A DNA stretch of 50,826 nt from an uncultured Candidatus Saccharibacteria bacterium. Lineage in GTDB: Bacteria; Patescibacteriota; Minisyncoccia; UBA6257; GWB1-50-10. Made by a program: the position numbers and the translations under genes. The stretch lies in contig CAZXDO010000006.1 of the NCBI GenBank assembly GCA_964639325.1, forward strand, positions 1-50,826. Direction: 5' to 3'. The notes beneath the pieces are model-generated. The model was not told the DNA's origin. It ran no database searches and worked only from the letters and a program-made list of their open reading frames with translations. Below are positions 47,027 to 50,826 of the stretch, piece by piece (position 1 is the first letter of the stretch; the number at the start of each line of letters is the position of its first letter).

Positions 47027-47707
47027 ATGAAAGAAGGTTTTTTAGACGAAAAATGGAAAAAACTTCTAAAGCTATCTAAGAAATTTAGATATGTTCCTTT
47101 TGTTGATTTTGTTTTAGTTTCAGGTTCTATGGCTATGGGAGAAGCAAAAGAAAATTCTGATTTTGATTTTATTGTTGGTTCCCGACAAGGACGTATTTTT
47201 ACCTCCCGCCAATTTACCGCCGGTTTTTTTGAATTAATTAGCAAAAGAAGAAAAAAAGACAGCAACGAGAAAGAAGCAAAAGATAAAGCCTGTTTTAATC
47301 ATTATGTTACTTCTAAAGGATATCGTCTTGATCCTCCGTATAACGAATATTGGATTTCTCTTTATCAAAAATTAGTCCCAGTTTATGGTGATCGTAAACT
47401 AATAGAATCTTTTCTAAGGGCTAATGATTGGGCGGGGGAGATAGAGATTGATTATAAATTATTATCTAATAAAAAAAATAGCTTAATTAAAAAAATCGGT
47501 GAGTTTTTCCTTAAGGGTAGATTAGGAAACTTTCTTGAAAGTAAGTTTAAAGAATACCAAGTTAAAAGAATTGAAAAAAATTTAAAAAAAACCAAAACTT
47601 ACAAACCTTTAATTAAATATGATGACACTGAACTTAGGTTTCATATAGATACTAGAAGAATAGAAGAGTGGATTGAAAATAATAAAAGTCGGGCCGCGGG
47701 GAGTTGA
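47027..47707 (+). CDS. nucleotidyltransferase-domain protein (Pol beta superfamily)
   Basis: LVSGSMAMGEAKENSDFDFIVGS is the GS...DxD minimal nucleotidyltransferase signature. The last 20 nt overlap tRNA-Pro on the opposite strand. Confidence 0.7.
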   Translation: MKEGFLDEKWKKLLKLSKKFRYVPFVDFVLVSGSMAMGEAKENSDFDFIVGSRQGRIFTSRQFTAGFFELISKRRKKDSNEKEAKDKACFNHYVTSKGYRLDPPYNEYWISLYQKLVPVYGDRKLIESFLRANDWAGEIEIDYKLLSNKKNSLIKKIGEFFLKGRLGNFLESKFKEYQVKRIEKNLKKTKTYKPLIKYDDTELRFHIDTRRIEEWIENNKSRAAGS

Positions 47708-47758
47708 ACCCCGGTCACACGCACCCCATGCGTGCATACTGCCGTTGTACTACGGCCC
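47688..47758 (-). tRNA. tRNA-Pro (anticodon GGG), no encoded CCA
   Basis: The reverse complement folds as follows. Acceptor CGGGCCG/CGGCCCG (C1-G72), D arm GTAC-AACGGCA-GTAT, anticodon arm CACGC-ATGGGGT-GCGTG, T arm CGGGG-TTCAACT-CCCCG, discriminator A. Confidence 0.9.
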
Positions 47759-47951
47759 GGAGCGAAGCAGAAATGCAAAAACGTTAGTTTTTGAATTTCT
47801 GATGAGCGATCGAGACGCAAACTTTGTTTACGGCCCGAAGTGAGGGAAAAGTATAAACGAAGTTTATGTTTTTCACGAACGCCCGGAGACGCAAACTTTG
47901 TTTACGGCCCGGAGCGAAGCAGAAATGCAAAAACGTTAGTTTTTGAATTTC
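47750..47951. repeat. direct-repeat block upstream of tRNA-Pro, incorporating the tRNA 5' end
   Basis: An identical 50-mer lies at 47750-47799 and 47902-47951. An identical 26-mer lies at 47811-47836 and 47885-47910. TACGGCCCG (complement of tRNA positions 1-9) occurs three times. Confidence 0.9.
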
Positions 47952-47978
47952 TAATAAAAAACCAGTTTCCATTATAAT

Positions 47979-48506
47979 ATGAAGAAAATTCTAAATCAAA
48001 AATTTTTCAACCGAGATACTCTTAAAGTTGCGGAAGAATTAATTGGAAAATATTTAGTTATAAAAAAAGGAAACATTAATAAATCAACAATGATTATTGA
48101 GGTAGAGGCGTATGATGGACCCAATGACAAAGCTTGTCATGCTTATAAAGGCAAAACAGAAAGAAATAAGGTTATGTTTGGCCCGCCCGGTTATTGGTAT
48201 GTATATTTAGTGTACGGTATGCATTGGATGCTAAATATTGTAACCGGTCCCGAGGGTTATCCGGGAGCAATTTTAATAAGGGGAGTAAAGGATATAGATG
48301 GACCGGGTAAATTAACAAAAAGTATGGGAATAAATAATCGCTTTAATAATAAACCCGCTAAAATAGAAACAGGGCTTTGGATTGAGGATAGGGGGGTAAA
48401 TATAAGAAAAAAAGATATTAAGAAAATACCTAGGATTGGAGTTGATTACGCTAAAGAGTGGGCCGATAAACCATATCGTTTTGTTCTTGATGAAAATAAA
48501 TTATAA
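47979..48506 (+). CDS. mpg: DNA-3-methyladenine glycosylase (MPG/AAG family)
   Basis: FFNRDTLKVAEELIGKYLV...VEAYDGPNDKACHAYKGKTERNKVMFGPPGYWYVYLVYGMHWMLNIVT. Confidence 0.88.
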   Translation: MKKILNQKFFNRDTLKVAEELIGKYLVIKKGNINKSTMIIEVEAYDGPNDKACHAYKGKTERNKVMFGPPGYWYVYLVYGMHWMLNIVTGPEGYPGAILIRGVKDIDGPGKLTKSMGINNRFNNKPAKIETGLWIEDRGVNIRKKDIKKIPRIGVDYAKEWADKPYRFVLDENKL

Positions 48507-50692: not shown

Positions 50693-50826
50693 CACGAATG
50701 AAATGAGTGATGACGGGTATGGATTCAAACCATTTTGCCCCGTGTTGGAAAGTATCTAAACCCACGGGTTTTCAAAGTCAGGGGGTCGGGGCAAAATATG
50801 TGTTTATGTGAGATTCCTTCCCCGGC
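50693..50826 (+). repeat. GC-rich repeat, element C, ending in a second copy of the tRNA-Gln 3' end
   Basis: 11-bp stem 50732-50742 / 50787-50797. Contains CCCCGTGTTGGAA and GGGGGTCGGGG blocks. GATTCCTTCCCCGGC 50812-50826 repeats 50676-50690, and the window ends inside it. Confidence 0.8.

Follow-up and report, generated by a model that had tools for sequence, protein, structure and literature searches.

Why does the 5′ end of one proline tRNA gene occur three times in succession? This question is raised by contig CAZXDO010000006.1 (C6) from the metagenome-assembled genome (MAG) of an uncultured Candidatus Saccharibacteria bacterium (GCA_964639325.1), of which we analyzed the whole 50,826-bp sequence (the window). 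The source genome (G000) comprises 678 kb in 53 contigs at 98% completeness. We compared it with a sister species (G001), two congeners (G002 and G003, 95% and 63% complete) and a member of another genus (G008). Upstream of the tRNA-Pro gene, a dispersed non-coding repeat forms a tandem of 2.6 units; we define this repeat in this analysis as the dispersed Paceibacterota 5′ tRNA-capping repeat family (model R1). The stretch is a further locus of an unpublished family that belongs with small structured bacterial repeats and tRNA-targeted insertions. On balance, the repeats are probably a stack of copies of a small non-coding insertion element that local recombination has recently reshaped.

Organization of the tRNA-Pro Locus

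The first-pass annotation had reported perfect direct repeats of 50 and 26 nt beside the tRNA-Pro gene. These repeats exist, but all of their coordinates have to be shifted by +1. The 50-mer TACGGCCCGGAGCGAAGCAGAAATGCAAAAACGTTAGTTTTTGAATTTCT occupies 47751–47800 and 47903–47952 (period 152) and stretches to 53 nt if one mismatch is allowed; the 26-mer GAGACGCAAACTTTGTTTACGGCCCG occupies 47812–47837 and 47886–47911 (period 74). Three further observations made at that stage hold. The start of the tRNA, CGGGCCGTA, is found exactly three times in the window (47751–47759, 47829–47837 and 47903–47911, all minus strand), against an expectation of 0.08 and with 0 of 100 shuffles reaching three. The 50-mer contains a hairpin (predicted fold −10.1 kcal/mol), and the 41-nt upstream sequences of the true tRNA and of the distal decoy are identical. 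Read on the tRNA strand, on which unit anatomy is described throughout, the locus consists of a promoter-like site, an 18-nt spacer and the order L-9mer-H-M-9mer-H-X-L-tRNA, with the following segments and features.

Segment L, 41 nt: AT-rich hairpin plus GCTTCGCTC; occurs twice
Segment 9-mer, 9 nt: CGGGCCGTA; two copies upstream, the third opens the tRNA
Segment H, 17 nt: AACAAAGTTTGCGTCTC; occurs twice
Segment M, 48 nt: linker, hairpin, tail
Segment X, 11 nt: GATCGCTCATC
47688–47759, minus: tRNA-Pro(GGG) (ARAGORN; Rfam tRNA, 55.3 bits)
47760–47837, minus: u2, the proximal unit (left 9-mer, mini-hairpin plus anti-arm, linker, AT-rich hairpin plus tail)
47837–47829, minus: left copy of tRNA nt 1–9 in u2 (from sequence)
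47828–47812, minus: mini-hairpin plus anti-arm of u2, AACAAAGTTTGCGTCTC (from sequence)
47811–47801, minus: 11-nt linker of u2, GATCGCTCATC (from sequence)
47800–47760, minus: AT-rich hairpin plus tail of u2, GCTTCGCTC (from sequence)
47838–47911, minus: u1, the middle unit; its right-terminal 9-mer is 47837–47829
47911–47903, minus: left copy of tRNA nt 1–9 in u1 (from sequence)
47902–47886, minus: mini-hairpin plus anti-arm of u1 (from sequence)
47885–47838, minus: linker, AT-rich hairpin (TTCG-type loop) and tail of u1, CCCTCACTT (from sequence)
47912–47952, minus: u0, a partial unit made up of an AT-rich hairpin and a tail, GCTTCGCTC, with the same sequence as the 3′ portion of u2
47971–47999, minus: promoter-like site TTGATT-17-TATAAT, facing the array and the tRNA
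47688–47978, no strand assigned: block comprising tRNA-Pro, the array and the spacer upstream; G000 and G001 have it, G002 lacks it (tblastn, junction alignment)

Nucleotides 1–9 of tRNA-Pro (47759–47751, CGGGCCGTA) also serve as the right-terminal 9-mer of u2. The loop of u0, CTAACG, is common to other copies of the family, and the hairpin of the u1 9-mer with its anti-arm has a predicted fold of −12.6 kcal/mol.

The proximal unit is a composite of its neighbors. Its first 26 nt are those of u1 (9-mer and H), its last 50 nt those of the u0 segment (L and 9-mer), and 11 nt of filler lie between; the exact segments of u2 have no further copy in the genome. Since these segments are perfectly identical while the units of G000 and G001 are only about 65–75% alike, the event that built u2 was probably recent and local. 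Unequal recombination or serial template switching, with the 9-mer copies providing homology, would fit this structure best.

A Dispersed Family of Structured Repeats

A unit of about 75–88 nt begins with a 3-bp mini-hairpin, A(A/G)C-AAA-G(C/T)T (AGC-AAA-GCT or AAC-AAA-GTT), followed by an anti-arm of 9–12 nt complementary to the final 9–12 nt of the same unit, a short linker (GCRTTCGG or CCTGCGTTGGYTCG), a long AT-rich hairpin, a C/T-rich tail (CCTCACTT) and a terminal 9-mer ending in GTA or ATA. Our first nhmmer profile was built from five copies, with u1 among them and u2 not; both were among the building sequences of the later models (nhmmer and a covariance model, CM). Along its full length, u1 matches the family with E values of 1.6e-20 (first profile), 2.9e-12 (later nhmmer model) and 3.0e-10 (CM). 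The full-length match of u2 reaches E = 2.7e-9 with the first profile, in which it had no part, 1.1e-8 with the later one and 2.2e-8 with the CM. On its own, u0 gives a weak partial match (E = 1.5).

With nhmmer, about 25 significant matches were detected in G000, both Pro units being among them at full length; the number varies from 22 to 27 across models (22 by CM). The CM finds 49 copies in the sister species and 1–4 in each of five other genera of the same family, but none in the congeners G002 and G003; a further 24 families of the order likewise gave no match at the same threshold. When species-representative genomes were scanned with a degenerate pattern, the element turned up in MAGs labelled Candidatus Paceibacter, Nomurabacteria, Kaiserbacteria, Jorgensenbacteria, Uhrbacteria and generic Paceibacterota, nearly always immediately 5′ of a tRNA gene. 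An exact 24-mer scan of public metagenome contigs for length variants of the same strain returned no match.

Rfam 15 contains no model that matches 47760–47975 at the gathering or at sub-threshold level, and the tRNA model RF00005 matches only 47689–47759, with nothing in 47760–47975 even at E values up to 5. We found no description in the literature of such elements in the candidate phyla radiation (CPR). Three familiar classes were considered for the array and rejected. The decoys are not tRNA pseudogenes or split tRNAs, given the lack of a tRNA-model signal and an architecture, foreign to tRNA, that is common to copies far from tRNA genes. A CRISPR-like array does not fit because the "repeats" are non-uniform and the "spacers" are all one hairpin-plus-tail. 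Finally, the small size of the unit and the lack of an Rfam match speak against a group I intron or another ribozyme.

Insertion at tRNA Position 9/10

Next to tRNA genes the units obey a strict position rule. At 26 tRNAs of ten isotypes (Pro, Phe-like, Met, Lys, Ile, Thr, Arg, Gly, Asp and Ala) the unit ends exactly at tRNA nucleotide 9, with the junction after U8-A9; the left flank is a perfect repeat of the 9-mer in 16 of these cases. More generally, units directly follow ...(G/A)TA in the target, which in tRNA genes corresponds to G7-U8-A9, i.e., to the step between positions 9 and 10. The genome of G000 follows this rule at tRNA-Pro, at a Phe-like tRNA (C26, repeat CATTTGCCGCGGTA), at an intron-bearing tRNA-Asn (C24, direct repeat ATTCCGGGGTA) and, in antisense orientation, at the 3′ end of tRNA-Gly(GCC). 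Only about 4 of its 45 tRNAs carry a unit. The tRNA-Asn(GUU) gene (C24:400–483, L063:400–483) combines a group I intron in the anticodon loop with a family unit at its 5′ end, and is missed by ARAGORN.

Sites that are filled here and empty in a congener show that the units are insertions. The copy at C26:10950–11028 of G000 splits an old tRNA-Val(TAC) gene in its anticodon loop, after GTA on the antisense strand, and the ortholog of this gene is intact in G002. Another copy (C46:5155–5230) interrupts the stop codon of an M23-like peptidase gene (TA|A), where the first A of the unit restores the stop; this site is empty in both G002 and G001. A nested case occurs in G001, where a unit that has its own 9-mer (GGGGCTGTA) directly follows the left 9-mer of a tRNA-Lys unit.

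The surroundings of the split gene show other irregularities. In C26:10916–11117 (L053:1470–1671) the 3′ half of the old tRNA-Val(TAC) is directly followed by a different, intact tRNA-Val(TAC), and the tRNA genes around the split gene are also rearranged relative to G002. A tRNA-Phe body at C26:10811–10883 (L053:1365–1437) carries the anticodon GGA, while its 90% identical ortholog in G002 has GAA. Among the 45 tRNAs that ARAGORN reports for G000, neither a tRNA-Phe(GAA) nor a tRNA with a CAU anticodon was found. The GGA anticodon could be a consensus error, could go with an unassembled gene, or could be a real anticodon change.

Comparison with the tRNA-Pro locus of relatives, which the first-pass annotation had proposed, finds the repeat unit present in G001 and G008 and the block of tRNA plus array absent from G002. 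The syntenic locus of G001 consists of the 9-mer, a 77-nt element and tRNA-Pro. In G008, CGGGCTGT is followed by a 68-nt element and a tRNA starting with CGGGCTGTA; the upstream copy, the anti-arm and the tRNA all have an identical C6-to-T change. In G002, the nucleotidyltransferase-like and mpg-like genes overlap stop to start with neither tRNA nor repeat between them, which makes the 291-bp block 47688–47978 an indel at the level of the genus. From the compactness of the G002 junction, we read the block as a probable gain in the G000/G001 line. A tRNA-Pro(GGG) gene was not found in G002 or G003. The nucleotidyltransferase-like open reading frame (ORF) of the window enters the opposite-strand tRNA-Pro gene by 20 nt (47688–47707); its homology to the G002 protein stops at ...NNK, and its last residues, SRAAGS, are read from the inserted tRNA block.

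Complementarity within Units

Together with the anti-arm, a left flank that repeats the 9-mer makes a local hairpin of 10–12 bp. The anti-arm can also pair with the right-terminal 9-mer, at 10 of 12 positions in u1 and 8–9 of 12 in u2. Across units next to tRNAs, which were chosen regardless of pairing, the anti-arm matches nucleotides 1–7 of its own tRNA at 5.5 of 7 positions and those of other tRNAs at 3.7 of 7, a value reached in 0 of 100,000 permutations. In alignment A1, 80.9% of cells are paired in the local hairpin and 85.6% in the long-range stem, compared with about 35–40% in slid controls. Double-sided changes occur at 4–6 pairs, and the covariation score was reached in 0 of 500 shuffles; these shuffles ignore relatedness, so that the numbers are not probabilities.

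The anti-arm remains self-complementary to the unit end in sub-families away from tRNAs as well. In one example, the terminal CTTGTGCGAGTA pairs with the anti-arm TGCTCGCACGG at 11 of 12 positions, while the left flank pairs at 4–5 only.

Transcription Context

The only good σ70-like site of the locus is single and stands upstream of the whole array. This site, TTGATT-17-TATAAT, agrees with the consensus at 10 of 12 positions and overlaps the first codons of the opposite-strand mpg-like gene; by chance alone, the region should contain one site of this quality. At the aligned position the sister species has TTGACT-17-TAGAAT. Judged from these sequences, the conserved position would be a stronger argument for a promoter than the score. 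It suggests that the array lies in a transcribed leader.

For the origin of the repeats, the first-pass annotation had named two possibilities: duplication of a tRNA promoter or leader unit, and insertion with recombination that recurs where the tRNA begins. There is no promoter-like site inside the 50-mer, and the one good candidate is outside the array at the same place in the sister species, so that a duplicated promoter is not supported; "leader units" remains acceptable as a description only. Insertion and recombination at the boundary proved essentially right, with stacked units joining exactly at tRNA position 9/10. Because it lies downstream of a likely promoter, the array is probably transcribed as a structured 5′ leader of about 205 nt, which RNase P would remove. 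The genome has a bacterial RNase P RNA gene at C25:20462–20843 (100.1 bits, barely at threshold).

Proposed Mechanism

Beyond the direct observations (family membership, copy numbers, patchy distribution, filled and empty sites, the position-9/10 rule, and complementarity with covariation), we commit to no more than a structure-dependent insertion element, which targets positions after (G/A)TA where the sequence is similar to its own right end. Such a unit would insert between tRNA nucleotides 9 and 10. Since its terminal 9-mer is identical to tRNA nucleotides 1–9, the tRNA gene would be rebuilt on the right, while the displaced original nucleotides 1–9 would be left behind as the "decoy", pairing with the anti-arm as a 10–12-bp hairpin. 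The most plausible order of events is one of stacked insertions at tRNA-Pro(GGG) and later recombination that gave rise to the perfect identities. Our guess at the enzyme would be a structure-reading single-strand recombinase, such as the Y1/HUH transposase of both high-copy genomes, and an excision circle would join the 9-mer to AGCAAAGCTT. Anti-arm and 9-mer could come to match a new tRNA by selection of variants, by templated hairpin correction, or by capture of a tRNA start at excision. We infer that the element is mostly selfish or neutral.

Several points weigh against this mechanism. It does not account for the matching antisense and sense copies that one family has for more than ten different tRNAs. 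Even beside decayed left copies the anti-arm continues to match the tRNA; this matching, like the three-site covariation in G008, fits selection for an RNA function no less well than it fits a selfish relic. It is ambiguous which units of G000 and G001 are one-to-one orthologs, and counts of G·T versus A·C pairs, taken without bias, show no excess of either and do not separate RNA-level from DNA-level pairing. Moreover, no enzyme is tied to the family, the link to Y1 being weak. Searches for a Y1/HUH transposase gene (Y1_Tnp) were positive in G000 and G001 and negative in G002, G003 and G042. Among 61 relatives, it occurs in 5 of 7 element-positive and 17 of 54 element-negative genomes, an association among kin that are not independent and thus suggestive at most. 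The Y1 gene of G000 (C33:2771–2998) is flanked by a different REP-like (repetitive extragenic palindromic) palindrome.

Retro-mobility, as of a SINE-like (short interspersed nuclear element) repeat, was also considered and set aside, because G000 has no reverse transcriptase (no PF00078 match) at 98% completeness.

Alternative Explanations

The array could instead be a functional pre-tRNA leader module in which the anti-arm pairs with nucleotides 1–9 of either the decoy or the true tRNA, thereby setting folding or RNase P processing or yielding a stable acceptor-stem-like minihelix RNA. We hold this to be unlikely, although much of the pairing evidence suits it: the anti-arm tracks the tRNA even beside a decayed left copy, three sites co-vary in G008, and both alternative pairings are energetically feasible. 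In addition, the units beside the 26 tRNAs all run in the direction of their tRNA and end at a constant distance from it, a promoter-like site whose position is conserved stands upstream of the array, and the leader folds far better than shuffled sequences (z = −5.7). A report on a designed riboswitch gives a precedent for control of RNase P by sequestration of the leader (PMC7897497). A leader function is harder to reconcile with the presence of a unit at only a few G000 tRNAs and its absence, by our detection, from two congeners. Most copies in G000 and G001 lie away from tRNAs, one copy destroys a tRNA-Val gene, and the sister species differ in unit number.

A bolder version of the insertion element would be guided by nucleic acid: the anti-arm would read tRNA nucleotides 1–9 by pairing, and the identical terminal 9-mer would rewrite the target, so that one family could be re-programmed for harmless insertion into many tRNA genes and could even move tRNA genes. 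That the tRNA-Pro block is missing from G002 hints that units can carry tRNA genes to new places. We know of no bacterial repeat for which such a read-and-rewrite logic of insertion has been described, and we consider this guided version improbable.

Plain tandem duplication of a tRNA leader or promoter, with no mobile element involved, would suit the last step, which looks local from the perfect 50- and 26-nt identities, the assembly of u2 only from sequence at the locus and the lack of other genomic copies of its segments. As a complete explanation, however, it is already contradicted: both units match, at full length, a family that recurs in dozens of copies at other places, the arrangement of 9-mer, unit and tRNA recurs at other tRNAs and in other genera, and the repeat holds no promoter-like site. 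Local duplication is, in this form, very unlikely.

Scars of integrases are equally hard to sustain. The repeats would then be attL/attR remnants of larger tyrosine-integrase elements whose cargo was later deleted, in the manner of cis-mobilizable elements (CIMEs). Tyrosine recombinase genes do exist in these genomes, and direct repeats of a tRNA end (9, 26 and 50 nt) flank an insert that leaves the gene intact. As in tRNA-targeting integrative elements and CIMEs, a repeated part of the tRNA gene borders the insert, a replacement copy keeps the tRNA intact, and accretion in tandem occurs. The present units differ in lying on the 5′ side at nucleotide 9/10, in their uniform and mutually homologous inserts of 65–80 bp with no integrase or other recombinase gene, and in an antisense copy of the target in each. 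Williams reportedly named, in 2002, the anticodon loop, the T-loop and the 3′ end as the sublocations of integration in tRNA genes; position 9/10 is none of these. With an att site specified by a protein, one family could not occupy the more than ten different tRNA sequences at which it is found, and PF00589 matches do not track copy number (two matches and no detected units in G002, one match and 49 units in G001).

An assembly artefact, with a short-read assembler looping through repeats, is conceivable in a fragmented MAG of 53 contigs, several of which break at repeat elements, but it is most improbable, because the junctions L-9mer-H, H-M, M-9mer-H, H-X, X-L and L-9mer-tRNA are each distinct and the given order is the only simple path, and the same architecture is found in independent assemblies of other species.

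Comparison with Known Elements

A small insertion element, the reading we prefer, invites comparison with known bacterial repeats. REP sequences and bacterial interspersed mosaic elements (BIMEs) with their RAYT (Y1/HUH) transposases, and hairpin-forming miniature inverted-repeat transposable elements (MITEs) such as Correia and RUP, are among the elements treated in a review (PMC3184786). Like these, the units are small, non-coding, hairpin-forming and multi-copy, are intergenic or at gene ends, expand in species-specific bursts (here 49 versus 0 copies within one genus) and form tandem or mosaic clusters with other repeats. A Y1_Tnp gene is present in both high-copy genomes, that of G000 being flanked by a different palindrome. 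REP sequences and MITEs differ in having fixed ends and no sense and antisense copies of the end of a neighboring gene. Measured against MITEs, the family has no fixed terminal inverted repeats; the unit ends vary, keeping only their complementarity. No target-site duplication of constant length was found either, as flanking repeats range from 2–4 nt to 21 nt.

With the IS200/IS605 elements and their PATE-like derivatives, the family shares subterminal hairpins, insertion just 3′ of a short target without a fixed duplication and the principle, known from IS608, of an internal stretch that pairs with the target or the element end. The IS608 guides, however, have 4 nt and another geometry, whereas the paired segment here comprises 9–12 nt in a simple hairpin. 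The P1 helix of group I introns offers another parallel, in that the end of an upstream "exon" and an internal guide form a hairpin with a nearly invariant T·G pair one base from the junction. In contrast to these introns, the unit is far below core size, lacks a terminal G as well as an Rfam intron match, and leaves an intact tRNA that makes splicing needless.

Neighboring Repeats

The first-pass annotation had likened the 152-bp period to periods of 156 and 136 bp at tRNA-Glu and tRNA-Gln. We consider this similarity coincidental and without meaning, since the latter repeats are duplications of tRNA 3′ ends around a different, GC-rich two-hairpin module. In G001, however, such a GC-rich module is nested inside family units, between the AT-rich hairpin and the tail-plus-9-mer, and on this ground the 5′ family and the 3′ module are modular relatives. 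Two composites of this kind (L088:785–960 on C28 and L097:98–270 on C54) consist of the 5′ half of a family unit, a GC-rich GGGCTTCGCT...CCGACCCC two-hairpin module, an ACTT tail and the 9-mer GGGGCTGTA. Their module resembles the one behind tRNA-Glu and tRNA-Val in the window.

The contig itself ends within a 133-nt element behind tRNA-Gln(TTG) (50694–50826). A 99% identical element ends C37 behind tRNA-Gln(CTG), and the last 95 nt of the element open contigs C18 and C4. Since copies end or start these contigs, the assembly evidently breaks at repeats of this type. A different palindrome, CAACTTGGGGGTTCCCGACACCCCCAAGTTG, is present in seven copies on the 4.8-kb contig C33 that carries the Y1_Tnp (IS200/RAYT-like) gene, and in about 90 copies in the genome, many of them at contig ends.

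Copies of the commonest sub-family in G000 (C48:3195–3284, C45:21618–21699, C50:206–287, C14:100–181 and C38:13563–13643) end in ...CCTTCCTTGTGATAAT and are followed by an ATG 6–12 nt further on. The CCTTCCTTGTGATAAT end and a TTGTTT in the hairpin arm resemble an extended −10 promoter for a nearly leaderless mRNA, so that these copies may act as portable promoters.

Conclusions

The CPR, or Patescibacteria, have tiny genomes that were considered poor in mobile DNA, yet the present genome holds about 25 copies of this element and its sister about 49. The units reshape tRNA loci, can split tRNA genes and sit inside stop codons, and their decoys of tRNA starts could mislead tRNA annotation and break assemblies. 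To this family, the tRNA-Pro locus contributes a stacked array with datable recent recombination, two clean filled-versus-empty sites, a tRNA gene and units that together form an indel, and a promoter-like site upstream with conserved position. The sense and antisense copies of the target end pose the question of whether they result from guided insertion, from templated hairpin correction, or from selection on a leader RNA. Guided insertion, if true, would be a new kind of programmable DNA insertion; a leader RNA, if true, would constitute a new layer of control over tRNA maturation in a major uncultured branch of bacteria.

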